Of a stretch of DNA of 64,000 nt, positions 3,431-35,930 are shown piece by piece (the first letter of the stretch is position 1; the number at the start of each line of letters is the position of its first letter). A program made the position numbers and the translations under genes. The DNA is taken from assembly GCF_020564625.1 (NCBI RefSeq), contig NZ_JAJBZT010000002.1, positions 387,141-451,140 of the forward strand. The letters run 5' to 3'. The stretch is from Leeia speluncae. Its GTDB lineage: Bacteria; Pseudomonadota; Gammaproteobacteria; Burkholderiales; Leeiaceae. The notes below the pieces were generated by a model. The model made no database searches. It was not told the DNA's origin and saw only the letters and a list, made by a program, of their open reading frames with translations.

Positions 3431-3558
3431 ACTTGCGGCTAGCTTAATGGTTTTTGTTTGGCTTGGCTTGGAAGAAATTGCAGATGGCTGTCACTGTTTT
3501 TGTAAGATATTCGGCGTATGATCGACCAAATCATAGCCACTAACTTTGGAGCCGATGG

Positions 3559-18998: not shown

Positions 18999-21900
18999 TG
19001 ATAATTCCTTTTTGTATTTCTTTCAGCACTTGCTGGGCAGCAGCAAAATCCAGATTTTGAATTAACCTGACTAACTGTGCAGTAAGATGATCCACAATAA
19101 CCGGTAAGGTATCGGTCAACAATACGATGTCATCGAGAATTTGTAAATTAAAAGAAGCCAATTGCTGCTCTACCGCTTCTAGCTTTTTCATACATTCCGC
19201 TTTAGAAACAAGGCGATTTGTATTCTCTTCTTTACGGTGCTGATCTTCAGGCAAATATTGCATCAAGAGATTCACACTCTCTTGCAGTAAGCGACGCAGT
19301 CTTGGTAATTCGGCTTTCAGATTGTCTTTCATCGTGGTCGGGTTATCGGTCGATTTAAACGCAGCTTCTAATGATTTCGCCCGTTCAGATAGCTCTCTTG
19401 CGCCAACGGTAGAAGACATTCCTTTCAAAGAGTGGATCGAAATTCTCGCCTCTTTAATTCGGCTCTCCGCCACGTAGCTTTCCAGCTCATCTAATAACTT
19501 ACTGGCTTCATCAGGAAACGCTAAAACAGAGGCGTGGAAGATTTGCTCGTTCTGGCTAAATCGCATCAAAATTAAAGATTTATCATCCACTAAGCCCGTC
19601 GCTTGTTCTGGCACGATGGTTGGCTGAACATCCACTTGATACTCATCTGGCACATGGCGTTTCAGTTCATCCAAGATAGTACGGATCACCACCCGCATCT
19701 CAATTGGCTTACTAATGTGGCCATTCATCCCTGCCGTTAAACAATTTGCACGGTCGGTAATAGATACGTTCGCGGTCATTGCCAAGATTGGCAGTTTTTG
19801 GAGTTCTGGGTGCAAACGTAATTGACGAGTTGCCTCAAATCCATCCATCACCGGCATTTGCAGATCCATTAGCACCGCATCAAATTTTTCATCCCCCGCC
19901 AATACCTTCTCTACACCCTCTTGCCCATTTTCAGCCAATACCACCGATGCACCAGCTGCGATCAGTAGCTCATGCGCAATCATCCGGTTTAGAGCATTAT
20001 CTTCTACCACCAGTAAATGAATCCCTTTCAGCGGTTTTTCATCTTTATCATGCACCACCATCCCTTCAAATATCTCGGCATGGCCAGTCAGCCCTTTCAC
20101 TAATTTGGTGGTTAAGTGCACAGGGGTAAAGGGTTTTGGCATTAGCCCATTAAACGGCACAGGGCCTTGCTCTTGCTCTAGGTGCATCATGTCATGGCCG
20201 ACACCTGTCACCATTAAAATAAACGGATGATCCGCACTCAGTGACACTTGCCGGATTTTATTAGCCGTTTCTAATCCATCTTCTCCCGGCATGTACCAGT
20301 CCATCAGTACCACATCGTAAGGTGTCCGTTCATTCACCGAAATTTTGTATTTGTCTAATGCACTAAAGCCATCTGTCGCACTATCAAATGGCCAACCGAG
20401 GAATCCAATACAGCGCTCCATCATGATACGAGTCACAGGGTTATCATCCACAATCAGCACGCGTGGCTGATCTGGTAGTTTGTCTAGCCCCGGCACATCC
20501 AATACCGTAGAGTCTTCTCTCATAAACGGTATATCTAATTCAAACCAGAATAAGCTGCCTTTTTCAAGCTCGCTCTCTAGCGTAATGTGGCCGCCCATTA
20601 AATGAATTAAATGCTGGCTAATTGCTAAGCCAAGCCCTGTACCACCAAATCGGCGGGTAGTAGAGGTCTCTGCCTGCGTAAAGCCTTCAAAAATCTTTTC
20701 TTGGCTTTCTTTACTAATCCCAATGCCCGAGTCTTGAATCTCAAAGCGAATCTTGGCGGCATAGTTCTCTTTTGATAAACAGCGGATAGATAAAGACACA
20801 AACCCGTGTGCCGTAAATTTAATCGCGTTCCCCATCAAGTTCAGAATCACTTGTTTTAGGCGTAGCGGATCGCCCATCAATCCACTCGGGATGTCTGGAT
20901 CAATATCAAACAACAATTCAACCGGTTTATTATTCAAATTACCGGAGATCACCGGTACTACATCGTCTAGAATCTCATCTAAGTGGAATGGCAAATCATC
21001 TAGCGTCAGTTTTTCTGCCTCAATCTTAGAAAAATCGAGAATATCGTTTAATAGCTCTAATAACGATCTAGCGGCTTGTCGCGCTTTTTCAGAATAATCA
21101 AATTGGCGTTGGGTTAAGTCGGTTTGCTGCAATAGTTGTAGCATCCCTAGTACCGCATTCATTGGTGTACGAATTTCATGGCTAACGTTCGCCATAAATC
21201 GGCTCTTGGTTTCACTGGCTTGTTCGGCTTGTGTTTTGGCTTCTACCAAGGTGTTTTCAAACTGCTTTTGTACGGTGATATCTTGGTTAGTACCAATCAC
21301 TAAAACGGGTAATCCCGCGGTATTTCGCTCTACATAAGCACCCGCCTTGATATATCGCGTTCCCAACTCTGGAATCACAATCCGGAATTCCACATCATAA
21401 TCGCCGGTGCCATCCATCAGCTCTTTAAGATGGTGCTCAATATCCCCTAAATCATCCGGGTGTACTAATGTTCGCCAATGGCTAAATGCGACGCCGGTGT
21501 CTAGATTTTCCATGGGCAAGTTATACATACGAAGACATTCTTCGTTGACTTGAACCATTTCCGAACCTGGTACCCACGTCCAAATGCCTAAGTGGGCGGT
21601 TTCTGCCGCAAGCCCTAGCTGCTCAGAGGTACGAACAATCTCACGCTGTTGCTCTTTCTCTTTGGTCACATCCCGCGCAATGCCCAAATAGCCAATAATT
21701 TCACCGCTCGCGTTTCTAGCAGGCGTAATCGTGAGAGCAGCCGTTAGTTTGCTGTCGTCTTTACGGACAAACGTCCATTCGGTGGTTTGTACTTCAAAGA
21801 TTTCCGGCTCATGCACAAAAATACGGAAGCCTGCGATTGGCATGCCATATTTAGCAGAGAGCATTTCACCGGCATGATGCACCTCTTCCATCACATGGAA

Positions 21901-24291
21901 TCTGGCTGGCGTACTTTTTCTCACCAACTCTTCCGCGGTATAGCCCAACATTTTTTCCGCGCCTTTGTTAAAGAGCGTAATCGTGCCTTGCTTATCTACG
22001 GCAATAATCGCCACTTCAGATGCTGCATTGAGTAAGTTTTTCAGTTCGAGGTTAACCTTCTCTACTTCTTCCTCAACTTGTTTACGTTCCGTAATATCAA
22101 TGCGCAGTGCGATATACTTTTCTGGCATCGCATCTGCCCCCATGATCGGGGTAATCAGGCTATCAAACCAACGTATTTCGCCAGATTTCGTCCGGTTGGC
22201 AATTTCACCATGCCAGGTATTGCCGGCGACCAAATGCATCCAGAAATTTTCCCAGAAATCGGGTAATTGGAACCCAGATTGCAAGATACGATGATTTTTA
22301 CCAATGATCTCTTCTTTGGTATAACCATGCACTTTGCAGAACTTTTCGTTTACATCAATGATGTTGCCGGCAGCATCTGTTTCTGAATACAACAGTTGTT
22401 CATTAATATTTTTTAGTAACTGATCATTCTCTTCTAATGCCAACGCCAATTGTTCTTTGCTCTCTACCACATCCGTTACATCGTGATAGATCACATAAAA
22501 ACCAATTACCTTCTTCTCTTGAAAATCTGGCAAGTAATTCACCATAAAGGTATGAACGCTGCCATCAGGTCCTTTTGATACGCGCTCAAAGCGTTGCGCC
22601 TCTCCTAACAAAACGGCTTTCACTTTAGAACGGCTAATTCGGTATAAGTCAGCCCCTAAGACTTGCTCAACACTCATACCAGGCATATCCCCAAACGGGA
22701 TGCTATACCACTCGTGGTACGCTGCATTGGCAACCACATTGATTTCATTGTTATCCCAATAACCAATCATCGATGGCATCACATCCATGATGGTGCGTAA
22801 ACTCTTCGTGGTTTTATTGAGTTCGTCAGATTGCTTCGCCACTTCTTCGGCGAGCGATTGATTTAAACGGCGAATTTCCTCTTCCGCCACTTTTTTCGCC
22901 GTAATGTCTGCAATCATCGAGGCGACCCCCACCACTTCACCTACTTCATTGCGAATAGGCGACATCGATACCGTGACATCAAATGGGCGGCCACTTTTGT
23001 GTAAACGTTTAGTTTCAAAACTGCTTAGCTGCTCACCACTGCCGACTCGGTGAATACATTTCAGCTCTTCGCCAGATAATTCTTCCGGCACAATCAGCCC
23101 AACCACCGATTGTCCGATCACTTCAGCAGCAGAATACCCAAACAGTTTTTCAGCAGCAGGGTTCCAACTAGTGACACGGCTGGTTAAATCTTTCCCGATA
23201 ATGGCATCAACCGAATTCGTAATAATGGCAGCTAAATTGGCTTGTACTTTGGCGTAGTCTTTGTCCCGCTGGCGGTTTCTTGCATAAAGTAGTACCACCC
23301 ACGCCATTAAGACAGAACCCACCACACCGGTGAAAAAGAGAATACCTAAGGGGAAATGATAAATGGTGTCGATGTAATCCGCATGCGGGTCTATCTGGAA
23401 CTGCCACTTGCGGCCAAAAAAAGTTTTCTCATAGGACTGCACCGCGTCTTTGCTAAGATGTTTGTCTTCCTCGTCCTCCCCTTTAGCAAAGAATTGAATC
23501 GGACGATGCTTATCCGATATATCCGACACCGTAATATGTGCTTTCGATAGCCGCCCCTTACTGAGTAAATCCCCCAATAAATCAGACATACTAAGTGGCG
23601 CATAAGCCCAAGCGGTGAGTAGTTTTTCCCTATCTTTTGGGTTGCCAGGGTCGACTATTCCCTTGTAAATCGGGAGTAAGAATAGAAAAGACTGTTGCTT
23701 CACTTTTGAAGCTTGTACAAGGGTAATTGGCGCGGTTAGCTGAGAAGTTCCTGTTAACATTGCCTTGTGAGCGGCCTCATACCGTCCCGCTTCAGAGGCA
23801 ATATCTAAACCCACCGCTGCTTTATTTTTCGCCAGCGGTTCCACCAAGGTAATCACATATTGGTCACCCACATGCTGGGTAAACCCGTGAATTTTAAAAC
23901 TCGCATCAATTTCTGTTTTAGCATCTTTTAAGAAGCCATTTAACTCTTCAGGCCGTACCCGGTTAATAATGCCAAAGCCCCGAATGCCCGGAAACTCTTT
24001 TGCAATGTCACGTGTTTGCATGTAATGGTAGAACTGTTCACGACTCATCACTAAGGTTTCGGCTGTAATATAGCTACCCCTCGCCCCACGTAATCCATGC
24101 TCATAGGCTTGGATACGGGACTCAATGGTATCGGCAACGTGATCCACATCTGCCATTAGCTGGCTGTTTACGCGTCGCTTATTTTGGTAGTCTGCCAAAA
24201 AAGTAACGAGTGCAGTGACCAAAATACCCGCCAATAAGACGTACAACGGAAGGTTGGCCTGATTTTTTTCCTTGCCCGGTAGCATGTACAA
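18979..24291 (-). CDS. Giant hybrid sensor histidine kinase: periplasmic CHASE-like sensor, TM, multiple PAS/PAC, HisKA, HATPase, two REC domains and C-terminal HPt
   Basis: H-box SHEIRTPMNAVLGM, ATPase G-boxes, two receiver motifs (LIVDDNP..D; LVVEDNALN..D) and HPt HSLKGMSSTVGA. The gene overlaps the downstream RR-GGDEF gene by 20 nt. Confidence 0.85.
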   Translation of the reverse strand: MYMLPGKEKNQANLPLYVLLAGILVTALVTFLADYQNKRRVNSQLMADVDHVADTIESRIQAYEHGLRGARGSYITAETLVMSREQFYHYMQTRDIAKEFPGIRGFGIINRVRPEELNGFLKDAKTEIDASFKIHGFTQHVGDQYVITLVEPLAKNKAAVGLDIASEAGRYEAAHKAMLTGTSQLTAPITLVQASKVKQQSFLFLLPIYKGIVDPGNPKDREKLLTAWAYAPLSMSDLLGDLLSKGRLSKAHITVSDISDKHRPIQFFAKGEDEEDKHLSKDAVQSYEKTFFGRKWQFQIDPHADYIDTIYHFPLGILFFTGVVGSVLMAWVVLLYARNRQRDKDYAKVQANLAAIITNSVDAIIGKDLTSRVTSWNPAAEKLFGYSAAEVIGQSVVGLIVPEELSGEELKCIHRVGSGEQLSSFETKRLHKSGRPFDVTVSMSPIRNEVGEVVGVASMIADITAKKVAEEEIRRLNQSLAEEVAKQSDELNKTTKSLRTIMDVMPSMIGYWDNNEINVVANAAYHEWYSIPFGDMPGMSVEQVLGADLYRISRSKVKAVLLGEAQRFERVSKGPDGSVHTFMVNYLPDFQEKKVIGFYVIYHDVTDVVESKEQLALALEENDQLLKNINEQLLYSETDAAGNIIDVNEKFCKVHGYTKEEIIGKNHRILQSGFQLPDFWENFWMHLVAGNTWHGEIANRTKSGEIRWFDSLITPIMGADAMPEKYIALRIDITERKQVEEEVEKVNLELKNLLNAASEVAIIAVDKQGTITLFNKGAEKMLGYTAEELVRKSTPARFHVMEEVHHAGEMLSAKYGMPIAGFRIFVHEPEIFEVQTTEWTFVRKDDSKLTAALTITPARNASGEIIGYLGIARDVTKEKEQQREIVRTSEQLGLAAETAHLGIWTWVPGSEMVQVNEECLRMYNLPMENLDTGVAFSHWRTLVHPDDLGDIEHHLKELMDGTGDYDVEFRIVIPELGTRYIKAGAYVERNTAGLPVLVIGTNQDITVQKQFENTLVEAKTQAEQASETKSRFMANVSHEIRTPMNAVLGMLQLLQQTDLTQRQFDYSEKARQAARSLLELLNDILDFSKIEAEKLTLDDLPFHLDEILDDVVPVISGNLNNKPVELLFDIDPDIPSGLMGDPLRLKQVILNLMGNAIKFTAHGFVSLSIRCLSKENYAAKIRFEIQDSGIGISKESQEKIFEGFTQAETSTTRRFGGTGLGLAISQHLIHLMGGHITLESELEKGSLFWFELDIPFMREDSTVLDVPGLDKLPDQPRVLIVDDNPVTRIMMERCIGFLGWPFDSATDGFSALDKYKISVNERTPYDVVLMDWYMPGEDGLETANKIRQVSLSADHPFILMVTGVGHDMMHLEQEQGPVPFNGLMPKPFTPVHLTTKLVKGLTGHAEIFEGMVVHDKDEKPLKGIHLLVVEDNALNRMIAHELLIAAGASVVLAENGQEGVEKVLAGDEKFDAVLMDLQMPVMDGFEATRQLRLHPELQKLPILAMTANVSITDRANCLTAGMNGHISKPIEMRVVIRTILDELKRHVPDEYQVDVQPTIVPEQATGLVDDKSLILMRFSQNEQIFHASVLAFPDEASKLLDELESYVAESRIKEARISIHSLKGMSSTVGARELSERAKSLEAAFKSTDNPTTMKDNLKAELPRLRRLLQESVNLLMQYLPEDQHRKEENTNRLVSKAECMKKLEAVEQQLASFNLQILDDIVLLTDTLPVIVDHLTAQLVRLIQNLDFAAAQQVLKEIQKGIISADLPE

Positions 24292-24465: not shown

Positions 24466-26139
24466 TTACAAGGTCAGCAGAGGAATATCTGCTTTAGGAA
24501 TTAAACGCTCTTTAAACACCGGTTCTTGGTAATAACGAATCTTCTCGCACATGACCGGGCTACTTAACGCTTCGCACAAGAAAATCTCTTTATCTTGGCT
24601 CATTGCTTTTAGTTCTTGCGGCAACATTAACGCACGTTTTTCATCCGACTCGGTTTTGCTGACATCACGCCCGCGCGAGACGCTTTCTTTGCGTACACTG
24701 CGGTAACCCAGCATTTCCGAATACTCATTGGCATCTTTTTGCTCTCTTGGCGTGTACAAAATTTGTAAGGCATGGTTTGTCATCAACGTCCGGCTTTGCT
24801 CTTGCCCATATGTCCCATCTAATTGCGAAATAGACTGAATAATTGGCAACAATCGAATGTTATAGCCCGCCATATAGCTCACTGCTTTTGCAATAATGTC
24901 TACTCGCCCAATTGAGGTAAACTCATCCATTAATAGTAAACATTGGTATTTCAACTCTGGGTTGTTCTGCGGTAATTCCTTGGTATTAATGTTAATCAAT
25001 TGCGAGAAAAATAGATTAATAATTAATCTGGCTTCTGCCAATTTATTAGGCTGAATACCAATATAAATCGTCATTTTTCGCTTACGAACATCGGTGAGCA
25101 AAAAATCATCTGCTGCGGTTGCCGCATCGGTAATCGGGTTTAACCAAGGCAATAATGGTTCTTTAAACGTCCCCAAGATACTCGAAAAGGTTTCCTCTGC
25201 TTGCGATAACATCCCTGCAAATGCTGTTTTACAGCGACTACTCACAAACGGCATTTCAGATAACTTGGTGAAGTAGGCGCGTAAATCCGTTCCATCTCCA
25301 CTAGATAAGCGGTATAGCGCACCAATGGAACATACAGGAAGTAACTCGGCAGGCACGCCGTCTTTTCGTTTTTGCTCGCGTCGCTCGAACAAAAAAAGCG
25401 CGAGTGCTAAAAACATATTTTGCGCTTGATTCATCCAAAAACGATCTTTCCCATCTTCTCCAACCGGGTAAAGCATCGCCGCAATACTCATTAGATCGGA
25501 CACCCTAAAATCCGGATCATCAGAGACATAGGTCAGTGGATTCCAACGGTGCGTTTTACGATCTTCTGCAAATGGGTTAAACAGGTAAACCTCTTGGCCA
25601 TACTTTTGGCGAAACCCACTGGTTAGTTCAAAGTTTTCTTGTTTAATATCTAACACCACCATCGACTCTTGATAAGACAATAGGTTAGGAATCACAATCC
25701 CGACCCCCTTACCAGAACGCGTAGGTGCCGCTAATAACGGAAACTGTTGCCCAGAGAAATACAAAAACCGGCCATTTGCCTTGCCAACTACCACGCTAGT
25801 CGGTTGTTGTTCAAAAAACCCTTTTTTGCTCAAGTCCGCCACGCTCGCAAAGCGCGCATCGCCATACAGCGAGTCTCTGTTAGTGAGCAGTTTATAAAGT
25901 AAAAAGCCCAACAAGATGAACGGTACGCCAGCACCAATCGCTAAAGACAGCTTCAATTTCCAAGCAACTGCAGGTACTTCATGGTATCGAGCAAAATACT
26001 GATAAAACGTCGTTGGCCCCAAAATACTTGTCGGCAACTTTGTCATCAATAAAAACAAATATCCACTTAGGTATAGCGCAACAAGCACCGCTACCGGTAC
26101 GGCCGCTAGCGAGATAACTTTTTTCTTTTCCACAAACAT
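24466..26139 (-). CDS. virD4: Type IV secretion coupling protein, VirD4/TraG family
   Basis: Two N-terminal TM helices, Walker A (APTRSGKGVGIVIPNLL) and Walker B (LLLMDEFTSIG), typical of a T4CP. Confidence 0.8.
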   Translation of the reverse strand: MFVEKKKVISLAAVPVAVLVALYLSGYLFLLMTKLPTSILGPTTFYQYFARYHEVPAVAWKLKLSLAIGAGVPFILLGFLLYKLLTNRDSLYGDARFASVADLSKKGFFEQQPTSVVVGKANGRFLYFSGQQFPLLAAPTRSGKGVGIVIPNLLSYQESMVVLDIKQENFELTSGFRQKYGQEVYLFNPFAEDRKTHRWNPLTYVSDDPDFRVSDLMSIAAMLYPVGEDGKDRFWMNQAQNMFLALALFLFERREQKRKDGVPAELLPVCSIGALYRLSSGDGTDLRAYFTKLSEMPFVSSRCKTAFAGMLSQAEETFSSILGTFKEPLLPWLNPITDAATAADDFLLTDVRKRKMTIYIGIQPNKLAEARLIINLFFSQLININTKELPQNNPELKYQCLLLMDEFTSIGRVDIIAKAVSYMAGYNIRLLPIIQSISQLDGTYGQEQSRTLMTNHALQILYTPREQKDANEYSEMLGYRSVRKESVSRGRDVSKTESDEKRALMLPQELKAMSQDKEIFLCEALSSPVMCEKIRYYQEPVFKERLIPKADIPLLTL

Positions 26140-26223: not shown

Positions 26224-27975
26224 TTAGACCTCCATGACGCGATGACCCTGTTGCTTTTGTTGGCTCTCTTGAAGCGTCCTTGCTTGCTCACTTTGCTGCA
26301 AGGTAGCCACCTGAGATGCGGCGGGAATTTCTTTAACCTGATGCGGATCAACCCTTGCATCTTTGAATTCATCCCATTGGTGATACAACTGTCCATCTTT
26401 CGCCTGATGGACATAATCTAGCTTACTTGCCTTCATTTCGTTGGCTTGCGTCGCCATGCAAGTCATCACATTCCGTTTCTGATCATCTGTCATGCCATGC
26501 AGATAGTCAGACGTATATTTTGCGACTTGGTCGTATAACCCTTTTAGATAATCAGGCAGACTATACTGACGCTCTGGCAGGAATGGAGACGCAGCAAAAG
26601 CACGGTCATTCGGTGTTTTTTCTGCAGCCGCACGAGGGTCTAGAGACGGTTTAATTTCTACAATTTCTCTAAGCCCAGGTTGACGGAATTCATCTTTCGG
26701 TCGAATAGCGCCAAGGTATTCTTTGTTCCAAGGATCTGCATCCAAGCGTGCTAATGCAGGACCAGTAGACGATTGCGACCCAAAAAACTGTGGGTGCCCA
26801 TTCGCATCTTTTCCTGCATAAATACCAATATGCTGTGATGTCTTTCCTGTTTTAAACATCACCAAGTCGCCGGGTTGAAGATCCTCTTTACTCCCCACAC
26901 GGTCGAAGTGCTTTTCGGCATAAGAGGTCAGGTGCTTCCCTTCAAATAGGGCGTGTGTCGTAAATCCAAACGAACCATCTTTATGAGTTGGAAATTTTTC
27001 TTCGATGTTGTATCCCGCCCCTTTCATCGCGTAATAAACAAGCGCAGAACAATCAACGCCTTTACGCCCGTCACCATCCCGATCTTGGTTATAACGCGTA
27101 CCATCAAATTTATTTCCCTGACCATTTTTCACTAACTCCCCAGCCATATCCTCACGGCCATATTCATGGGTTTTGCTAGAGAAATTACGGGTTGCATAAT
27201 CCAAAATGGAACGTTGATGATGTAAAACAGGGTCAGCAAGCTGACTTGGTTGTTTAGACTGTCCTGCTATCTCTTCTACAGAAGATAGATGTTTATGACC
27301 TAAGAAAATCTCTGCACTATCATGGTATCGCTTATCGAAGCCACTACCTGCTTTATGACCAATTGCATCGAACGCTTGTTTTAATTCTTTTTCTGAATGG
27401 TTTGTTTGGTACTGCTTTACTGCATGCGCTAATTTTTCAGAAGCGGATGGGTTATGCCACACCATAGAAAACATGACAGCTTTTTGAGCATCGCTAAGTG
27501 CTGAAACCTCTACGCCTGCCTTGGCTAGGTTTTTATTTAATTTTGCTTCATATTCAGGTGCAAATTGATCAACCAACGCTTTACTTTGAGCATCTGTTAA
27601 TGTCAGTTGTTTTTGCCATTCCGGAGAAGCAAACACATACGAATGACCTGACTTATCTAATTTTAAAGAGGTTATTTCACCGATTGCTTTACCTCGTGAA
27701 GAAGCTTCAAAATCTTTGAATTTTGGATGAGAACCATCTGGTGTATGTTGTAGGACATGCCCAACTTGCTGCAAATCAGCTTTTAATTTTGGTAAAGGAT
27801 ATCCAATCGCCTCTTCTACCTTTGCCCATCTCTCTTCATTAAAGGCACCGTTTTTTCCATTACATAAATTGATGCCAGCACCAATCGTTGGATACCCTTT
27901 TGTATCTAGATAAACATATCCAACCACATCTTCCATCTGCTTAAGTGCAGCATACCGAGCAGACTCATAACTCAT
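26224..27975 (-). CDS. Two-domain peptidoglycan hydrolase (N-terminal T4-lysozyme/GH24-like, central NlpC/P60 peptidase) with Gln-rich C-terminal tail; candidate T4SS-delivered antibacterial effector
   Basis: E...D...T motif (MEDVVGYVYLDTKGYPTIGAGINL) like T4L residues 11-30. NlpC/P60 Cys (GVDCSALV) and His (TSQHIGIYAG). C-terminal QQSEQARTLQESQQKQQ. Confidence 0.65.
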   Translation of the reverse strand: MSYESARYAALKQMEDVVGYVYLDTKGYPTIGAGINLCNGKNGAFNEERWAKVEEAIGYPLPKLKADLQQVGHVLQHTPDGSHPKFKDFEASSRGKAIGEITSLKLDKSGHSYVFASPEWQKQLTLTDAQSKALVDQFAPEYEAKLNKNLAKAGVEVSALSDAQKAVMFSMVWHNPSASEKLAHAVKQYQTNHSEKELKQAFDAIGHKAGSGFDKRYHDSAEIFLGHKHLSSVEEIAGQSKQPSQLADPVLHHQRSILDYATRNFSSKTHEYGREDMAGELVKNGQGNKFDGTRYNQDRDGDGRKGVDCSALVYYAMKGAGYNIEEKFPTHKDGSFGFTTHALFEGKHLTSYAEKHFDRVGSKEDLQPGDLVMFKTGKTSQHIGIYAGKDANGHPQFFGSQSSTGPALARLDADPWNKEYLGAIRPKDEFRQPGLREIVEIKPSLDPRAAAEKTPNDRAFAASPFLPERQYSLPDYLKGLYDQVAKYTSDYLHGMTDDQKRNVMTCMATQANEMKASKLDYVHQAKDGQLYHQWDEFKDARVDPHQVKEIPAASQVATLQQSEQARTLQESQQKQQGHRVMEV

Positions 27976-30171: not shown

Positions 30172-31398
30172 CTAGCCTTTCACACAAACCACTTGCCTTA
30201 ATGTATGCACAATTTCTACTAAATCTCGTTGGGCATGCATCACCGCGTCAATATCCTTATACGCCATCGGAATTTCATCAATTACATCTGCATCTTTCCG
30301 ACATTCCACATGCTTCGTGGCGGCAATTTGATCTTCGACGGTGAATTTCTTTTTCGCTTGCGTACGGCTCATTACCCGACCAGCGCCGTGGCTACAGGAA
30401 CAAAATGCTTCTTCGTTTCCTAACCCTCTCACAATAAAGCTTTTCGCCCCCATCGACCCCGGTATAATTCCCAATTGCCCTTTTTGCGCAGAAACAGCCC
30501 CTTTTCTTGTCACCAATACCTCTTGTCCAAAATGCGTTTCTTTTTGCACATAGTTATGGTGGCAATTCACGGCTTCCACTGTCGCATCAAATGGTTTTTT
30601 AATTACCTGCTTTAACGCGGCAATCACGTTTTGCATCATCACCATCCGGTTTCGCCGGGCATAATCTTGCGCCCACCCTACGGCTTCTACATAGTCGTTG
30701 TAGTGTTGGCTACCTTCTTCAAAATAGGCCAAATCCCGATTGGGTAAATTGGCGATATGTTGTCGCATATCCGCTTGGGCAAGTTCGATAAAGTGGTTAC
30801 CGATGGCATTCCCCACGCCTCTCGATCCGCTATGGAGCATAATCCACACCCGGTTTTGCTCATCTAGGCACAGTTCAATAAAGTGGTTCCCCGTTCCTAA
30901 GGTACCCAAATGCTTATAGTGGTTGGTCTTTTCTAAATGCGGATACTTTTGCGTAATGGCTTTAAATCCAGGTAGCAAAGCGGCCCACATGGCATCGACT
31001 TCTGATCCCGGATCAGACCACGCCCCTTTATCCCGCCCGCCCGGCGTTCTTCCATGCGGTACGGCTGTTTCTATGGCAGACCGAATCTGATACAAATGAT
31101 CGGGTAAATCACTGGCGGTTAAGGTGGTGCACGCCGCCATCATTCCACAACCAATATCCACACCAACTGCAGCGGGGATAATGGCTCCCTTGGTTGGAAT
31201 CACGCTACCAATCGTAGAACCTTTTCCCAAGTGCACATCTGGCATCACCGCCATGTGTTTAAAAATAAATGGCATTTTTGCGGTATCCATCAATTGCTTT
31301 TGTGCATCGAGTTCAACCGGTACACCATCCGTCCACATTTTGATGGCCTTCCCTTTTTCAGACTGTAATACTTGATATGTCATTTTTAATTCTTTCAT
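30172..31398 (-). CDS. rtcB: RNA-splicing ligase RtcB (3'-phosphate/5'-hydroxyl RNA ligase)
   Basis: Near-collinear with E. coli RtcB (MWTDGVPVE...PDVHLGKGSTIGSVIPT...CHHNYV...CSHGAGRVMSR). Confidence 0.9.
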   Translation of the reverse strand: MKELKMTYQVLQSEKGKAIKMWTDGVPVELDAQKQLMDTAKMPFIFKHMAVMPDVHLGKGSTIGSVIPTKGAIIPAAVGVDIGCGMMAACTTLTASDLPDHLYQIRSAIETAVPHGRTPGGRDKGAWSDPGSEVDAMWAALLPGFKAITQKYPHLEKTNHYKHLGTLGTGNHFIELCLDEQNRVWIMLHSGSRGVGNAIGNHFIELAQADMRQHIANLPNRDLAYFEEGSQHYNDYVEAVGWAQDYARRNRMVMMQNVIAALKQVIKKPFDATVEAVNCHHNYVQKETHFGQEVLVTRKGAVSAQKGQLGIIPGSMGAKSFIVRGLGNEEAFCSCSHGAGRVMSRTQAKKKFTVEDQIAATKHVECRKDADVIDEIPMAYKDIDAVMHAQRDLVEIVHTLRQVVCVKG

Positions 31399-31427
31399 TT
31401 CTTCTTGTTATTAACTGTATTTGCTTA

Positions 31428-32573
31428 CTAACCAATCTTTACTAAACCGTTGAGTACCTGATCCAAACCACCATACACCGCAAATTTATCAATCCGATTG
31501 GCAATTCGCTCCAAGGTTTCCAATTCTTTTAACCGCATCGTGACGGGGTTTTCTTCCATTAATTTGGCGGTATTTAGCATGGTTCGCGTATTTGCCGCTT
31601 CTTCCCGTCGACGGATCACATTGGCTTCTGCCGCTTTTTCCGCCTCCACCACTTGTGCCATCAAGGTCTTCATTTCTCCCGGCAAGATAATATCTTTGAT
31701 ACCGACGCGCGATAGCTCAATCCCCATTTCCCCCGGTAAGGTATTAAACCGGGCTGCAATCAGTTGATCTAGCGCTTGTTTGTCCTCTAACAACTGATCA
31801 AGGGTTCGTGTCGCCACTAATTCACGCAAAATAAACTGCAATTCACGATACAAGTAATCGGCTGGCTTCGCATTTTTTTCATAGGCCAACAGAAGATCCG
31901 TCAGTTGCCAGATGGCAGTCAAATTGATCCGTAGGTTTACTTTGTCTTTGGTTAAAATTTCTTGCCCATTGATTTCTAGTGCCTGCATCCGGGTATCAAC
32001 CATATCTACGGTAATATCGCGGTTAAATTGCCAAAATCCATGCAAACCAGCCGATAATAACTCGACCACTTTTCCGTTTACCCGCAACACCCCTTGCGCA
32101 TAGGCTGGTACAGTCACCTGCAAAATTCCGCCCAACCCTTCAATCGCATGCGCACGCAGAGAGGGCTTGGTTAGTATCGTTAATACATCAGCCGATACTT
32201 TTAGCTCAGTTAACGCCACGTAGGCAAAACGCTGAGACTTTAACCCTTTCCAATATAAGCGCTTGGCAGAAGGAGGAATGATTTCAACCAATGCATCGTC
32301 TTCGTATCGTAAGCCGACAGCTTGGATATCTGTCGTCAGCGCGTCAAAATGCGTTTCCACAACCTGCGGTTCATATCGACGTAAGTAATCGGCTAATGGA
32401 TGGACAAACTTAGCAGAATGGATATCCACAATCTGCACGGTATAGCGATTTTTCAAATCCCAACGTGTATGTTCACCAGGTAATAAAATCGAATCAAAAT
32501 CCCCGTCTTTGAACAAGATGCCCCGCTCATGTTTTTTTACATGCCACATTTTTTTGGTAAATTTCCATTTCAT
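31428..32573 (-). CDS. SPFH/band-7 (slipin-like) domain protein without N-terminal TM anchor, co-oriented with rtcB
   Basis: Central SPFH core (QEILTKDKVNLRINLTAIWQLTD) and a C-terminal coiled, Ala/Glu-rich stomatin-like tail. Confidence 0.7.
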   Translation of the reverse strand: MKWKFTKKMWHVKKHERGILFKDGDFDSILLPGEHTRWDLKNRYTVQIVDIHSAKFVHPLADYLRRYEPQVVETHFDALTTDIQAVGLRYEDDALVEIIPPSAKRLYWKGLKSQRFAYVALTELKVSADVLTILTKPSLRAHAIEGLGGILQVTVPAYAQGVLRVNGKVVELLSAGLHGFWQFNRDITVDMVDTRMQALEINGQEILTKDKVNLRINLTAIWQLTDLLLAYEKNAKPADYLYRELQFILRELVATRTLDQLLEDKQALDQLIAARFNTLPGEMGIELSRVGIKDIILPGEMKTLMAQVVEAEKAAEANVIRRREEAANTRTMLNTAKLMEENPVTMRLKELETLERIANRIDKFAVYGGLDQVLNGLVKIG

Positions 32574-32804
32574 TTTTTCAATCCTTTTTTACGAGCCGGC
32601 AGCATCGATCTGTTGCGAAGCGTCAGGAGGAGCGATGAGGGAATCTTTGTTTAGCCACACAGAACCATTTATTTGTGATGACTGCTCACACGGCTTGCTT
32701 CTGCATTGACGGCACAAAGACTTGCTCATTACCCATCCGAACCCTCGGCGCGAGAACGGTAAAGTAATCCAACCCTTTACGTGCTGCCGGTTACTACTTC
32801 ATTT

Positions 32805-33015
32805 CATAGTGGAGCGGGAATCGAACCCGCGACAAACGATTGATAAGATCGTTGCTCTACCAGTTGAGCTTTCCATGTGTGGATAAGTAGGAATCGAACC
32901 TACATTTCACCTACCTAGGTATCCCGACTTTGCCAAGCAATGGTTCACGGCACAGCAAGCTCACGACCTTTTACAAAGGGAACTAACTGCCAGCGCGGGA
33001 TACAGACCCGCCACC
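32805..33015 (-). ncRNA. Tandem tRNA-like elements (two T-arm GGTTCGATTCC units plus a D-arm GCTCAACTGGTAGAGC) in the sigma-54-transcribed leader of the SPFH-rtcB operon; candidate Y-RNA-like tRNA mimics, not canonical tRNAs
   Basis: The minus strand reads ...GCTCAACTGGTAGAGC-AACGATCTTATCAATCGTT-TGTC-GCGGGTTCGATTCCCGC-TCCAC... and ...GTAGGTTCGATTCCTAC... The acceptor stems pair poorly, the anticodon-like loop CTTATCA is unusual, and no CCA is encoded. Confidence 0.45.
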
Positions 33016-33050
33016 GCTAGTGAGCCATTGTTTCTCTTGGCAACCTTCTT

Positions 33051-33070
33051 TATGCGATAGGCGTGCCAGC
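33051..33070 (-). promoter_or_regulatory. Sigma-54 (-24/-12) promoter driving the tRNA-like-SPFH-rtcB transcript
   Basis: The minus strand reads CTGGCACGCCTATCGCAT, which fits TGGCAC-N5-TTGCW. An AT-rich region suitable for IHF or a UAS lies between it and rtcR. Confidence 0.5.
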
Positions 33071-33195
33071 CCCTTAAAATTTGCATTAAATATTTTTAAT
33101 TCATTGTTTTTATTGAATAAAATATATTTACCAAAAAGACCTCCTTGTCATGACAATAGAATTTATATATATTTATTTATAGTTATTTATAAAAA

Positions 33196-34797
33196 TTGAT
33201 AATCATGAAAAAACGTTTGGTGGTGATTGGATTTATTGGTAGTACATTAGATTTTGTTGGCAAGGGCAGTAAACGCTGGGATCGTTGGCGGCCAACCATT
33301 TCGCTTTGCCACCAACCCTCGCTGACAATCGATCGACTAGAGTTATTGCATGATATGCATAGTAAGAGGCTTGTTGAACGCACAAGGGATGACCTCCACC
33401 TTCTTTCCCCTAATACAGAAGTAAGAGCACACTTTAATCCATTGAAAAATCCATGGGATTTTGAAGAGGTCTATACCTCATTACATGACTTTGTACGTCA
33501 ATATCCATTTGACCCGGTCAATGAAGAGTATTTAGTCCATATCACTACAGGCACCCATGTCGCTCAGATTTGCTGGTATCTACTCACCGAAAGTCGTCAC
33601 ATCCCCGGCCGGCTAATCCAAACATCGCCTGCAAAGCAAGATGATCAACCAGCCGCCATGGGGAAATATGAAATCATCGATCTCGATCTAACCCGCTATG
33701 CCAAAATTGCGCATCGATTTAAAGAGGAACAAGCACAAACCTTTGCGCAATTAAAAGCGGGAATCGCCACACAAAACCCGGTGTTTAACCAGATGATCGA
33801 GCAAATTGAACAAATTGCTGGAAAATCTCGCGCCCCCATCTTGCTAACTGGCCCGACCGGTGCAGGGAAGTCATTTCTTGCCAAGCAAATTTTTCAACTC
33901 AAACAACAACGCCAGCGACTGTCTGGCAAGTTAATAGCAGTCAACTGCGCGACCTTGCGTGGCGATAGCGCCATGCCTGCACTATTTGGGCACATTAAAG
34001 GTTCTTTTACCGGTGCACTGCAAAACCGCCCGGGTTTATTAAAAGCGGCAGATGGCGGCGTTTTATTTTTAGATGAAATTGGCGAACTAGGATTAGATGA
34101 ACAAGCGATGTTGCTAAAAGCAATTGAAGAAAAGCGCTTTTACCCCTTTGGTAGTGACCATGAAACGACAAGTGATTTTCAACTGATCGCGGGGACAAAT
34201 CGCGATTTACTCAGTGAAGTAGCAGCAGGCCGCTTTAGAGAAGACTTACTCGCACGGATAAACCTTTGGTCATACGAACTCCCCGGTTTAGCACAACGCA
34301 AAGAAGACATTGCACCAAACCTTGCCTTTGAATTAGCCCGCGTCAGCCAAGAGTTGGGCGAGCAAGTTCGTTTTCATACCGAGGCAAAACAACGTTACCT
34401 TGCCTTTGCTACTCACCCCAGTGCCAAGTGGCTAGGTAATTTTCGAGAATTCGGAGCATCCATCACCAGAATGGCGACACTCGCCGAACAAGGACGAATC
34501 ACAGAGCGTATTGTAGAAACGGAAGTCACGCGGATGCAAAAGCAGTGGCATCGCCCGACGACAGATTTAGCGAGCATCTACTTGAAAGACGCAGCGGAAG
34601 CATTAGATGAGTTTGATCGTATTCAACTCAATGGCGTATTACGTGTATGTGAGTCGGCTGGCAGTTTATCCGACGCGGGGCGCCAATTATTTGCGGTCTC
34701 TCGTACACAAAAAAAGCAAGCCAACGATGCTGATCGGCTAAAAAAATACCTCGCCAAATTTGGCTTAGACTGGGAACGAATTCACCCAAGCATTTAA
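33196..34797 (+). CDS. rtcR: Sigma-54-dependent transcriptional activator RtcR (N-terminal CARF-like domain, AAA+ domain, HTH)
   Basis: Collinear with E. coli RtcR along its length (VVIGFIGSTLDF...HITTGTHVAQICW...GPTGAGKSF...GSFTGA...GGVLFLDEIGEL...). Confidence 0.9.
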   Translation: MIIMKKRLVVIGFIGSTLDFVGKGSKRWDRWRPTISLCHQPSLTIDRLELLHDMHSKRLVERTRDDLHLLSPNTEVRAHFNPLKNPWDFEEVYTSLHDFVRQYPFDPVNEEYLVHITTGTHVAQICWYLLTESRHIPGRLIQTSPAKQDDQPAAMGKYEIIDLDLTRYAKIAHRFKEEQAQTFAQLKAGIATQNPVFNQMIEQIEQIAGKSRAPILLTGPTGAGKSFLAKQIFQLKQQRQRLSGKLIAVNCATLRGDSAMPALFGHIKGSFTGALQNRPGLLKAADGGVLFLDEIGELGLDEQAMLLKAIEEKRFYPFGSDHETTSDFQLIAGTNRDLLSEVAAGRFREDLLARINLWSYELPGLAQRKEDIAPNLAFELARVSQELGEQVRFHTEAKQRYLAFATHPSAKWLGNFREFGASITRMATLAEQGRITERIVETEVTRMQKQWHRPTTDLASIYLKDAAEALDEFDRIQLNGVLRVCESAGSLSDAGRQLFAVSRTQKKQANDADRLKKYLAKFGLDWERIHPSI

Positions 34798-35930
34798 GGA
34801 GAAACGGTGCCATCACTATGAAATGGCGCTCGCTCAGCGAGCTCATCTAAATAGTGCCCAATACCTTGCCGCTCGTGGTTGAGGAATCGGCTAACTGCAT
34901 TAGATAAGCCCTCATGGCGTAACCAATGCCAGCTGCTAGTTTCTACTGCTTCAAACCCTCTGGCGAGTTTATGCTCCCCTTGTGCGCCACCTTCAAAGAC
35001 CTGTAGGCCGCGCTCAATCGCAAACTCAATGCCTTGGTGATAACACAGTTCAAAATGCAAAGAAGGCAACCAAGCAACCGATCCCCAATAGCGCCCATAT
35101 AAGCGAGTACGATCATATAAATTCAGCGCCGCCGCAACGGGTTTCCCTTGATGGTACGCCAGCACCAGCAAACAATTATCTGCCATTTTCTCTCCCAATA
35201 ACAGGAAGAATTCAGGTGTTAAGTACGGTGTAGATCGATGGGCTAAGTAGGTTTCTTGATAGCAACGATAGAAAAATTGCCAATCTTCGGGCGTAATCGC
35301 CGCACCCGTTTTTCGGATAATCTCGACCCCATCAAATTGCGCTTTTTTGCGTTCCTGTTTTAGCTTCTTCCGCTTTTCACTTCGTAGGGTAGAAAGAAAG
35401 TCTTCATAATCCCTGTACCCACGATTCACCCAATGAAACTGCACCCCTTTACGGGTCAACCACCCGCGTTCGAGCAAATCCGCTTCGGGCGCATCATCAG
35501 CAAACAGCAAATGCCAGCCAGAGAGCTCATTCTCTTCGGCAAATTGCATCACGCCATCAATTAGTAAGCATTGGTGTGATTGGTCTTCAGCCATTATCCG
35601 GTGTCCGGTCACCGGCGTAAAAGGAATCGCAGAGAGTAGTTTTGGGTAATAAGGAATACCGGCTTGCTGGCAGGCATTCGCCCACGCCCAATCAAATACA
35701 TATTCGCCATAAGAATGGCTCTTAAGATAGAGCGGCATCGCTGCCTTTAAGGCACCTTGCTCACTCAGCGTGACATGCGCCACTTGCCAACCGGCAGCTT
35801 GCCCCACACTTTGTGAGGTCTCTAAAGCATGGAGAAAAGCGTGCTGCAAAAAGGGTTGATCTTCTGCCAGTGCATTCCATTTCTCTTCAGATACGGAAGC
35901 AATTGAAGACACCATTTCTAGTTGCATCAC
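34794..35930 (-). CDS. FemAB-like / DUF482 GNAT-fold acyltransferase-family protein
   Basis: A 378-aa protein with a BioF2/FemAB-like fold signature. It overlaps the rtcR stop by 4 nt, convergently. Confidence 0.45.
   Translation of the reverse strand: MMQLEMVSSIASVSEEKWNALAEDQPFLQHAFLHALETSQSVGQAAGWQVAHVTLSEQGALKAAMPLYLKSHSYGEYVFDWAWANACQQAGIPYYPKLLSAIPFTPVTGHRIMAEDQSHQCLLIDGVMQFAEENELSGWHLLFADDAPEADLLERGWLTRKGVQFHWVNRGYRDYEDFLSTLRSEKRKKLKQERKKAQFDGVEIIRKTGAAITPEDWQFFYRCYQETYLAHRSTPYLTPEFFLLLGEKMADNCLLVLAYHQGKPVAAALNLYDRTRLYGRYWGSVAWLPSLHFELCYHQGIEFAIERGLQVFEGGAQGEHKLARGFEAVETSSWHWLRHEGLSNAVSRFLNHERQGIGHYLDELAERAPFHSDGTVSP

Follow-up and report, generated by a model that had tools for sequence, protein, structure and literature searches.

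A conserved, folded leader RNA with tRNA-like modules ahead of the SPFH gene and rtcB in Leeia

Background

In Escherichia coli and Salmonella, damaged tRNA with cyclic-phosphate ends switches on the regulator RtcR through its CARF domain. The Rtc locus of Leeia speluncae, referred to here as a betaproteobacterium, raises the question of what the approximately 470 nt of non-coding sequence between its sigma-54 promoter and its protein genes represents, and what such an RNA might do for the RNA ligase RtcB. We address this using a 64-kb stretch of DNA (the window; 64,000 nucleotides) that contains the locus.

Related arrangements are known. A combination of a Band-7 protein, a "b7a-tRNA" and RtcB was predicted by Burroughs and Aravind (Nucleic Acids Res 2016, 44:8525; as cited in bioRxiv 10.1101/312249), and the Band-7/b7a-tRNA pair is summarised in the same preprint as a proposed functional equivalent of Ro60/YrlA. 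In P. aeruginosa the SPFH gene PA4582 (PaFlo8) is embedded in the rtc locus (PMC13086221, PMC8619066), where the RNA is annotated as tRNA-Arg4, PA4581.1 (PMC13637947), and one stress regulon of Anabaena includes rtcB together with a slipin gene and an operon of spare tRNAs (PMC10272220). A preliminary description of the Leeia locus regarded the replacement of Ro60 by an SPFH protein as undescribed; the combination is not new, because it was, according to that preprint, predicted in 2016 and is carried by P. aeruginosa PA4581-PA4585. Set against the system as summarised there, what is new is that the tRNA-like pieces are embedded in a conserved folded leader of approximately 470 nt that is absent from Rfam.

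Results

Layout of the locus

The order is rtcR on the plus strand, a single sigma-54 promoter, the non-coding leader, a gene for a soluble SPFH protein and rtcB, and the locus is very probably an RNA-repair operon of the Band-7 (SPFH), tRNA-like RNA and RtcB type under RtcR/sigma-54 control. Its main features are:

33196-34797, plus strand: rtcR, encoding a sigma-54-dependent activator (RtcR/CARF-type domain at the N-terminus, then AAA+ domain and C-terminal region)
33053-33068, minus strand: sigma-54 promoter TGGCACGCCTATCGCA (TGGCAC-N5-TCGCA)
31428-32573, minus strand: SPFH/Band-7 ("slipin") gene, 381 aa (PF01145 Band_7, 98.8 bits)
30172-31398, minus strand: rtcB RNA ligase gene (PF01139, 433 bits)

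All elements listed in the preliminary description were recovered at their positions, and its assignment of RtcR and RtcB as close to the E. coli proteins agrees with the Pfam matches (for RtcR, Pfam RtcR 269 bits and Sigma54_activat 163 bits) and with identities of 61% over 525 aa and 70%, respectively. RtcB matches that of Leeia sp. TBRC 13508 (403 aa as annotated) at 100% identity; since NCBI starts this identical protein at M6, the rtcB start is probably at 31383. Downstream of rtcB follow a BadF/BcrA-type kinase (nagK-like) and an amidohydrolase. As noted before, rtcA is missing: tblastn detected none in the 64-kb window (best E-value 0.48). The operon is a minimal form, also without the RlaP nucleotidyltransferase and the treble-clef zinc-finger gene. 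The earlier statement that Ro60 is lacking stands for the nine scanned ORFs of 449-583 aa, none of which has a TROVE (Ro60) domain, and its scope is those ORFs.

The SPFH gene, with a ribosome-binding site AGGA at 32582-32585, encodes a protein 50-57% identical to the products of rtc-locus SPFH genes in Pseudomonas, Burkholderiales and Rhodocyclales. Its maximum 19-residue hydropathy is 1.37 and therefore no membrane helix is predicted, in keeping with the earlier view of a cytoplasmic SPFH protein standing where Salmonella has Ro60. The AlphaFold model (mean pLDDT 83.6) has stomatin, HflK/C, prohibitin and QmcA as top Foldseek matches (E-values 3e-14 to 1e-8), and in this model the protein keeps the long C-terminal helices that other SPFH proteins use to form rings or cages. 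No NfeD domain was found in the scanned neighbours (rtcB, rtcR, the kinase, a FemAB-like gene and the amidohydrolase).

The promoter is the sole match to TGGCAC-N5-TYGCW in the window, as expected from the earlier reading of an RtcR/sigma-54-controlled locus with a long non-coding leader, and in 52 related loci the element is present at equal distance. Judged from the usual promoter spacing, transcription would start at about 33042.

The locus had also been called rearranged, which is not so: its layout is the usual one in a large family. Among the 80 related loci fetched, rtcR lies upstream and rtcB downstream in about 55. The partner gene kept in about 80 loci encodes SPFH and not Ro60, and the accessory genes in the relatives are RNA-repair genes (RtcA, RlaP and a PNKP phosphatase).

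Architecture and conservation of the leader RNA

The leader is a non-coding, conserved folded RNA. In the 5' to 3' direction it comprises a three-way junction, the two tRNA-like modules, one small hairpin and the 3' domain:

32930-33043, minus strand: 5' domain, three-way junction (from folding and covariation)
33043-33021 with 32947-32930, minus strand: P0 closing helix (duplex z = -4.6 in the window, mean -1.6)
33011-32995, minus strand: P1 hairpin, GCGGG-N7-CCCGC (from the sequence)
32991-32949, minus strand: P2 hairpin (from covariation)
32881-32924, minus strand: tRNA-like module 1, acceptor-like stem GGAUA/UAUCC (5 bp) and T-arm (32887-32903)
32810-32875, minus strand: tRNA-like module 2, 4-bp acceptor UGGA/UCCA, Rfam RF00005 match
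32854-32869, minus strand: module 2 D-arm GCTCAACTGGTAGAGC (from the sequence)
32836-32852, minus strand: module 2 anticodon-like arm, loop CUUAUCA
32814-32830, minus strand: module 2 T-arm (from the sequence)
32793-32810, minus strand: small hairpin adjoining module 2 on its 3' side (predicted by folding the window sequence)
32596-32790, minus strand: 3' domain, made up of closing stem, small hairpin and an imperfect, rod-like hairpin (about 150 nt)
32790-32782 with 32604-32596, minus strand: closing stem of the 3' domain, perfect 9-bp pairing

Covariation of the leader among relatives is strong. With slid alignments as the control for pairing percentages, 96.1% of the cells are paired in alignment A2 (38-47% when slid; 24 compensatory pairs) and 93.9% in alignment A7, which covers the 3' domain (28-46% when slid; 23 compensatory pairs). 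The two T-loops lie 68-77 nt apart in 48 of the 52 promoter-bearing leaders. Rfam 15 matches the tRNA part of the leader only and has no model for the remainder.

In the 5' domain, where the GCGGG-N7-CCCGC hairpin noticed previously is P1, the P1 and P2 hairpins have 92-99% of their cells paired over 28 leaders, and 13 of their 18 pairs show compensatory changes. A covariance model of this domain built with the window left out gave its best match at the right place, at only 9.5 bits (E = 0.33); with default filters the same model gave no match in the window.

For the tRNA-like part, the earlier observation of two T-arms and one D-arm was borne out: GGTTCGATTCC occurs exactly twice in the 64 kb (32890-32900 and 32817-32827, minus strand), 73 nt apart. 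Module 1 has no D-arm in Leeia, and its T-arm has 98.6% of cells paired with three covarying pairs; the Pseudomonas loci fetched have a full cloverleaf at this position, called by ARAGORN. Module 2, which is equivalent to the b7a-tRNA and to PAO1 tRNA-Arg4, gives the only RF00005 (tRNA) match (46.3 bits, gathering score 29, covering model positions 4-67). All five pairs of its anticodon stem covary, and its position 37 is C. The acceptor stems, previously thought not to pair, do so and are short, and neither module encodes CCA. ARAGORN called no tRNA in the window and reports odd 2-nt or 4-nt "anticodons" in relatives. Among orthologous loci the "anticodon" loop of module 2 varies from unrelated 7-nt loops to UUCG/GAAA tetraloops and a long insert, and the nominal anticodon would be Ile, Arg, Leu, Ser, Thr, Met, stop or undefined. 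The D and T arms that make up the tRNA elbow are almost invariant. Since the anticodon varies while position and flanking structure are kept under covariation, selection is for shape and not for decoding. Both modules are tRNA mimics and not tRNA genes, as first proposed.

The small hairpin is followed by a UAGUAA motif, which corresponds to CAGUACCC of the family; relatives have a hairpin of different sequence at the same place (e.g. CUGCC/GGCAG, CUGUCC/GGACAG or ACACU/AGUGU). The 3' domain folds with an MFE of -81.9 kcal/mol in the window (z = -4.1; mean z = -4.24 over 28 leaders). The octamers CCGGCAGC and GCTGCCGG (32596-32603 and 32783-32790) had been suggested to close a long terminal stem; they belong to the 9-bp pairing of CCGGCAGCA with TGCTGCCGG, a length reached in none of 300 shuffles, and the position is kept in relatives with compensatory changes (91% of cells in the closing helix paired). 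This stem ends 10-30 nt upstream of the ribosome-binding site.

Discussion

A role for the leader

The best overall explanation, and one that we consider reasonably probable, is that Leeia carries the known SPFH/tRNA-like RNA/RtcB operon in which RNA and SPFH protein act as partners for RtcB. By analogy with YrlA and Ro60, the most likely role of the leader would be that of an RNA partner of an SPFH oligomer assisting RtcB. How such a cofactor might work we can outline tentatively. RNA damage would cause RtcR to fire the sigma-54 promoter, giving a transcript in which the leader precedes the SPFH gene and rtcB. Either the leader itself or tRNA-like fragments released from it by tRNA-processing enzymes at putative sites could then bind the SPFH oligomer, and the resulting particle may act as a scaffold or cofactor presenting broken tRNA-like substrates to RtcB. 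Such a role has been proposed for YrlA-Ro60, found at the equivalent place in the Salmonella operon. In PAO1 qRT-PCR detects the equivalent RNA, which reaches about half the level of canonical tRNAs and does not rise while the Rtc proteins are strongly up-regulated (PMC13637947); this flat level is a poor fit to a model of simple co-induction by that promoter. Also against such a role, P. aeruginosa PA14 lacking paFlo8 showed no phenotype when tested for growth, virulence, motility, biofilm and oxidative stress (PMC13086221).

Alternative explanations

The leader might instead be purely cis-acting, its modules and rod being cleaved by RNase P, RNase Z, RNase E or RNase III, such that the cuts shorten the 5' UTR, determine how stable or how well translated the SPFH-rtcB mRNA is, or couple expression to tRNA-processing capacity, with no particle acting in trans. 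RNase III cuts duplexes of the kind offered by the rod, with its roughly 150 nt. In every locus the RNA lies within the 5' UTR between promoter and ribosome-binding site, its closing stem stops just short of the latter, and no separate promoter or terminator for the RNA was predicted on the minus strand. However, the predicted folds do not sequester the ribosome-binding site, a leader of approximately 470 nt with four structured parts, each conserved separately, goes far beyond what processing signals need, Salmonella has the trans-acting YrlA/YrlB RNAs in the equal operon slot, and the PAO1 RNA is present at tRNA-like levels independently of Rtc protein induction, and we regard this explanation as unlikely.

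Less probable still is that the modules serve as a sentinel or decoy, cut by invading tRNA-cleaving toxins so that fragments with cyclic-phosphate ends feed the CARF domain of RtcR and amplify induction. Activation of RtcR by damaged tRNA and the near-invariant elbow would agree with this, but most known tRNA toxins attack the anticodon loop, which is not conserved here and in many loci is replaced by a UUCG or GAAA tetraloop, and the conserved 5' and 3' domains and the SPFH gene are left unexplained.

The modules could also be YrlA-type Y RNAs acting with a Ro60 encoded elsewhere in the genome, and YrlA is, according to bioRxiv 10.1101/312249, occasionally found beside Band-7 genes. In a 900-nt search the Rfam YrlA model aligned weakly with T-arm 1 and the module 2 D-arm (23.9 bits, E = 0.015), but this is far under the gathering score of 69, the Ro-binding stem positions are unpaired, the nine scanned ORFs lack TROVE and SPFH is the conserved partner; we consider this very improbable, and the resemblance to YrlA is weak.

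That two ordinary, if degenerate, tRNA genes or pseudogenes lie by chance between rtcR and the operon is scarcely credible: module 2 passes the Rfam tRNA threshold and its PAO1 equivalent is annotated as tRNA-Arg4, but ARAGORN calls neither module, the acceptor stems have 4-5 bp, CCA is lacking, position 37 of module 2 is C, and the nominal anticodon changes by locus within a position and flanking structure held by covariation.

Comparison with known systems

Among the closest known systems is Band-7/b7a-tRNA/RtcB, where RtcB likewise adjoins a Band-7 protein and a tRNA-like non-coding RNA, and the Leeia SPFH protein is an ortholog (50-57%) of those in the rtc loci of Pseudomonas, Burkholderia and Rhodocyclales. 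The summary of that system describes a single tRNA-like RNA, whereas Leeia and 48 of 52 relatives have two modules in a structured leader of approximately 470 nt. The P. aeruginosa locus, comprising PA4581 (rtcR), PA4581.1 (tRNA-Arg4), PA4582 (PaFlo8), PA4583 (rtcB), PA4584 and PA4585 (rtcA), shares the divergent rtcR, a CCA-less tRNA-like RNA in the spacer, SPFH and rtcB (PMC8619066, PMC13086221, PMC13637947). Leeia has neither PA4584 nor rtcA, its module 1 is reduced to an acceptor/T-arm minihelix compared with the full cloverleaf of the Pseudomonas loci fetched, and its leader is AT-rich and diverged in sequence.

The Salmonella rsr-yrlB-yrlA-rtcB-rtcA operon resembles that of Leeia in its RtcR/sigma-54 control and in having tRNA-like non-coding RNAs between promoter and rtcB, beside a putative scaffold protein. 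This scaffold is Ro60/TROVE in Salmonella and would be SPFH in Leeia, where the RNA falls short of a match to the Rfam YrlA model (23.9 vs 69 bits) and, compared with the Salmonella Y RNAs, the modules have a normal, not permuted, order and no recognisable Ro-binding stem. The E. coli rtcR/rtcBA locus is also divergent and sigma-54 dependent (RtcR 61%, RtcB 70% identical), but has a 186-nt spacer, no SPFH gene and rtcA after rtcB, whereas Leeia has 622 nt between rtcR and the inserted SPFH gene and no rtcA. Finally, HflK/C, QmcA-YbbJ, stomatin, prohibitin, flotillin and the vault protein MVP share with the Leeia protein a predicted SPFH fold followed by long helices, and all these families build large rings or cages; unlike the membrane SPFH assemblies, the Leeia protein has no membrane anchor and no NfeD partner in the scanned neighbours.

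Gene content of the Leeia rtc locus

The locus consists of rtcR, a sigma-54 promoter, tRNA-like elements, an SPFH gene and rtcB, all in place as the preliminary description had observed, and its protein-coding genes and their downstream neighbours are as follows:

33196-34797, plus strand: rtcR, divergent, with an RtcR/CARF-type domain and a sigma-54 AAA+ domain (Pfam)
31428-32573, minus strand: SPFH/Band-7 gene (PF01145, 98.8 bits)
30172-31398, minus strand: rtcB (PF01139, 433 bits)
Beyond rtcB: BadF/BcrA-type kinase and amidohydrolase genes, nagK/nagA-like (ORF listing and Pfam)

RtcR and RtcB are 61% and 70% identical to their E. coli counterparts, respectively, and over RtcB the locus matches Leeia sp. 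TBRC 13508, a Neisseriales betaproteobacterium, at 100% identity. The longest rtcB ORF begins five codons before the NCBI start of an identical 403-aa Leeia protein and before the alignment with the E. coli protein; judged from these sequences the true start is probably the ATG at 31383 (minus strand), which would place 44 nt between the SPFH stop codon and rtcB. The SPFH gene lies directly beside rtcB on the same strand, with a gap of 29-44 nt. Within the 622-nt spacer between rtcR and the SPFH gene we found the sole window match to TGGCAC-N5-TYGCW (33053-33068, minus strand), i.e. a -24/-12 sigma-54 promoter as in the E. coli-type rtc operon.

The absence of rtcA noted previously was borne out in the 64-kb window by tblastn with RtcA from a related locus (L023) as query (best E-value 0.48). 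No RlaP nucleotidyltransferase was present anywhere in the 64-kb window and no TROVE (Ro60) domain was detected among nine scanned window ORFs of 449-583 aa; the locus genes are rtcR, SPFH and rtcB, with no Ro60/TROVE neighbour among them.

On the other side of rtcR, a FemAB-like gene (34794-35930, minus strand; PF04339, 496 bits) converges on rtcR and overlaps its final 4 nt, with no apparent tie to the Rtc system. Just past the nagK/nagA-like genes lie genes for a TraG/VirD4-family type IV secretion coupling protein (362 bits) and an NlpC/P60 protein, and beside them one for a hybrid sensor kinase of 1770 aa whose domains are CHASE, PAS, HisKA, receiver and Hpt (region at 24466-26139, 26224-27975 and 18979-24291, all minus strand). 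The coupling protein may indicate that part of a conjugative element survives close to the rtc locus.

Relatives and conserved locus plan

Homologs of the SPFH protein number in the thousands and are annotated as "slipin family protein"; a metagenome scan returned no close relatives. For comparison we retrieved 80 genomic loci, drawn from Pseudomonas, Burkholderia, Ralstonia, Undibacterium, Accumulibacter, Thiobacillus and others. The neighbourhood survey, which the preliminary description had suggested, placed the SPFH gene between a divergent upstream rtcR and a downstream rtcB in approximately 55 of the 80, and the Leeia SPFH protein is 50-57% identical to those encoded at this position. 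The locus had been called rearranged; it is instead an ordinary minimal member of the family. A sigma-54 promoter is kept 470-570 nt upstream of the SPFH start in 52 loci, and 48 of these 52 leaders carry two T-loops at a spacing of 68-77 nt, with the first lying 160-190 nt past the -24 element. The corresponding Leeia spacings (73 and 169 nt) are mid-range.

Many relatives have accessory genes, i.e. rtcA (at least 27 of 80 loci), RlaP (at least 31), a 120-aa treble-clef zinc-finger protein (tblastn matches in 22 loci), which in L003 is encoded between the SPFH gene and rtcB (L003:5194-5556), a HEAT-repeat protein (4 loci) and, in L056, a PNKP-type phosphatase (L056:5230-5703). Further accessory-gene coordinates are L023:7513-8313 and L003:6844-8223. 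All five types are absent from the window and the Leeia operon is the minimal form.

A separate set of loci (L013, L014, L022, L049, L051, L053, L054, L057, L059, L062, L065, L068, L076 and L078), most of them from isolates or MAGs of Burkholderiales (Roseateles, Aquabacterium, Rubrivivax, Ottowia, Pelomonas, Ramlibacter, Rhizobacter), carries, ahead of the SPFH gene and in its orientation, two to nine genes for canonical tRNAs (Glu, Asp, Phe, Arg, Pro, His, Lys, Leu, Gln and others), e.g. L049:2142-2702 and L022:1332-2406. Here the SPFH gene usually occurs with a tRNA-like element and rtcB, and within 4 kb there is neither rtcR nor a sigma-54 promoter. An HNH endonuclease ORF (2887-3480) separates the tRNA array from the tRNA-like element in L049. 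These loci resemble the Anabaena TrcR regulon, in which a spare-tRNA operon, rtcB and a slipin gene, together with an HNH gene, come under one stress regulon (PMC10272220).

The tRNA-like modules are mimics

Two exact copies of the 11-mer GGTTCGATTCC, and no more, are present in the window, both on the minus strand of the spacer and with an offset of 73 nt. It belongs to two tRNA-like modules, the first of which is:

32881-32924, minus strand: module 1, acceptor-like stem GGAUA/UAUCC (5 bp) and T-arm; D-arm absent

Module 2 has a 4-bp acceptor stem (UGGA/UCCA), D- and T-arms that read as normal, the loop CUUAUCA with C at position 37, and no encoded CCA. That these are true tRNAs is the less likely reading. 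In its favour, the proposed Rfam and tRNA-finder check of the spacer gave a match to RF00005 (tRNA) at 32810-32875 (minus strand) of 46.3 bits against a gathering score of 29. The RF00005 match covers model positions 4-67 only, however, ARAGORN made no tRNA call in the window, and neither a 7-bp acceptor nor a standard anticodon loop is present, so the earlier view that the modules are mimics rather than tRNA genes holds. The acceptor stems, which had been described as not pairing, are short (4 and 5 bp) rather than absent.

Among the relatives ARAGORN called tandem tRNA-like pairs in many loci; their "anticodons" were of 2 or 4 nt, or varied in identity (Ile, Arg, Leu, Ser, Thr, Met, stop). 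The aligned module-2 anticodon loops comprise unrelated 7-nt loops, in many loci UUCG or GAAA tetraloops, and a long insert, and anticodon identity is not conserved across orthologous loci. Selection therefore acts on shape, not decoding. Since the element is one part of a long covarying leader, genome annotations that name such an RNA "tRNA-Arg" are misleading. A case in point is the PAO1 RNA annotated as tRNA-Arg4 (PA4581.1), which has been noted to lack CCA (PMC13637947).

The leader is a long structured RNA

Twenty-eight diverse leaders were aligned from the start site through module 2 (alignment A2). RNAalifold predicted 41 pairs, constituting the hairpins P1 and P2, T-arm 1 and the four module-2 helices, and 96.1% of cells were paired compared with 38-47% when the partner column was slid by 1-3. 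Compensatory change was seen in 24 pairs (8-16 in the slid controls) and the covariation score was 0.438 (at most 0.115 in controls); none of 500 shuffles reached the observed values. Flanking P1 and P2 are segments able to pair as a closing helix, P0, the sequence of which differs per locus (duplex z-score -1.6 on average, -4.6 in Leeia). A covariance model of this 5' domain built without the window (R1) gave no match with default filters; with filters off its best match was at the expected place (32943-33034; 9.5 bits, E = 0.33). The case for including Leeia at the 5' domain comes from position, the folding signal of its own sequence and the A2 alignment, the model score being non-significant.

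Module 2 is followed in the 3' direction by a small hairpin of locus-specific sequence, the motif CAGUACCC (UAGUAA in Leeia) and a 3' domain comprising a closing stem together with a long imperfect rod and a small hairpin whose loop is often GCAA. The MFE z-score of the 3' domain was negative in all 28 loci (mean -4.24; Leeia -3.9 to -4.1). RNAalifold predicted no pairs for the joined 5' and 3' pieces of this domain from 23 diverse loci, because their sequence alignment was poor, and we then counted a hand-specified structure on the 23 loci and turned to an alignment within one group, 10 Rhodocyclales-type loci (A7). In the latter, 44 pairs were found with 93.9% of cells paired (28-46% when slid) and compensatory change in 23 pairs. 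The counted closing helix was paired in 91% of cells across the 23 loci, with variants at the same position such as GCCGGUG/CACCGGC, GUCGACG/CGUCGAC, CAGGGUG/CACCCUG and AAGGGUGG/CCACCCUU. In Leeia it is CCGGCAGCA/UGCUGCCGG, exactly the two octamers that had been suggested to form a long closing stem. By a strict Watson-Crick run statistic, in GC-rich sequence, the closing stem was separable from shuffles in only 13 of 28 loci.

Two family motifs are near-invariant, AUGCCGC on the 3' side of P2 (A2 columns 119-126; GUGCCGU in Leeia, about 32949-32953) and CAGUACCC before the 3' closing stem (about 32791-32796 in Leeia). Each is at least partly unpaired in RNAalifold, and both are candidates for protein or tertiary contacts.

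Two other possibilities were considered and set aside. Pairing of the post-tRNA motif CCCGYYGG with the 5' CACGGG strand is perfect in L003 and by eye inconsistent in L005, L009 and L016; covariation favours P1 as a local hairpin and the closing stem of the 3' domain over it. The minus strand of the leader is also without a predicted intrinsic terminator or attenuator.

Rfam 15 matched the tRNA part alone, in the window and in eight related loci. On this evidence the leader is a long covarying RNA, absent from Rfam, in which the tRNA-like element is a single module among others; how new this is hinges on the content of Burroughs & Aravind 2016. This leader provides a concrete RNA for mapping, deletion and pull-down.

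The SPFH protein

The AlphaFold model of the Leeia SPFH protein (mean pLDDT 83.6) has helices at residues 299-341, 343-363 and 368-380, and Foldseek matched it to stomatin (E = 3e-14), HflK/C (1e-11), prohibitin, QmcA, erlin, flotillin and the major vault protein. As in the membrane-anchored stomatin, HflKC and QmcA, the predicted fold is followed by what appear to be long oligomerisation helices; unlike in these, there is no N-terminal membrane segment or hairpin (maximum Kyte-Doolittle 19-residue score 1.37). The same 19-residue hydropathy reached at most 1.84 (median 1.43) among 60 aligned homologs, and no NfeD domain was present in the scanned neighbouring genes. The lack of a hydrophobic segment and of an NfeD domain in the scanned neighbours, together with the confident model, argue that the protein is a soluble SPFH retaining the long C-terminal helices, which in SPFH proteins elsewhere build rings or cages.

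By eye, the N-terminal half has three similar beta-rich stretches (residues 9-52, 80-124 and 152-197), the third coinciding with where the SPFH domain begins. In the alignment, homologs of greater length (510-590 aa; P0002-P0015, from Xenorhabdus and others) have additional N-terminal sequence. RNA binding by the beta-rich stretches is one possibility.

Possible function of the leader RNA

RtcR is activated by damaged tRNA and RtcB performs the ligation chemistry. Damage-induced transcription would run through the leader, and the structured RNA might be released from it or persist. It could then be bound by an SPFH oligomer, and the resulting RNA-SPFH oligomer would assist RtcB, by analogy with YrlA-Ro60. 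Tentatively, and regarding the idea ourselves as rather doubtful, we suggest that the functional RNA is the whole leader of approximately 470 nt (three-way junction, two tRNA mimics and a rod of approximately 150 nt) and not the lone b7a-tRNA, and that, whole or processed, it loads into a soluble SPFH cage as a bacterial RNA-repair particle.

The main rival is that the leader acts purely in cis, in processing or stability. The fact most awkward for simple co-induction is that the PAO1 RNA level is uncoupled from Rtc induction: by qRT-PCR, tRNA-Arg4 was present at about half of canonical tRNA levels, unchanged on induction of the Rtc proteins (PMC13637947). A sentinel or decoy role of the modules is less likely. 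Less likely too is an RNA working with a distant Ro60, given a leader that is YrlA-like only at the level of a weak alignment.

If the RNA-SPFH particle is real, its logic would compare with that of the complexes of Ro60 and Y RNA or of vault and vault RNA. Operons of the SPFH/tRNA-like version occur much more widely than the studied Ro60/Y-RNA version, being found in Pseudomonas (including P. aeruginosa), Burkholderia, Ralstonia, Accumulibacter and many others.

Comparison with known systems

The preliminary interpretation was supported in part: the combination with an SPFH protein had been thought undescribed, and here it does not stand. Burroughs & Aravind 2016, as summarised in bioRxiv 10.1101/312249, predicted the combination of Band-7, b7a-tRNA and RtcB and proposed b7a-tRNA to be functionally redundant with YrlA; this preprint was the only place where a full-text mention of b7a-tRNA was found. 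In P. aeruginosa, PA4582 (PaFlo8) has been described as embedded in the rtc locus (PMC13086221, PMC8619066), and its deletion gave no phenotype in the assays used (PMC13086221). With this prior prediction and these reports the combination is therefore already described, and for the window itself the result is mostly a clarification of family membership.

With respect to YrlA/Ro60, the Leeia RNA differs in scoring below the RF02553 threshold (23.9 bits against a gathering score of 69, a weak alignment over T-arm 1 and the module-2 D-arm in which the outer-stem positions do not pair), and the locus in being without a TROVE gene. With the E. coli-type rtc operon it shares the divergent rtcR and the sigma-54 promoter; in E. 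coli, however, the rtcR-rtcB spacer is 186 nt, compared with 622 nt between rtcR and SPFH in Leeia, and rtcA follows rtcB, whereas Leeia has no co-transcribed rtcA. With the Band-7/SPFH, b7a-tRNA and RtcB system it has in common the RtcB ligase, the adjacent orthologous Band-7 gene and the neighbouring tRNA-like RNA, and the locus is a minimal Leeia member of this known, computationally predicted system.
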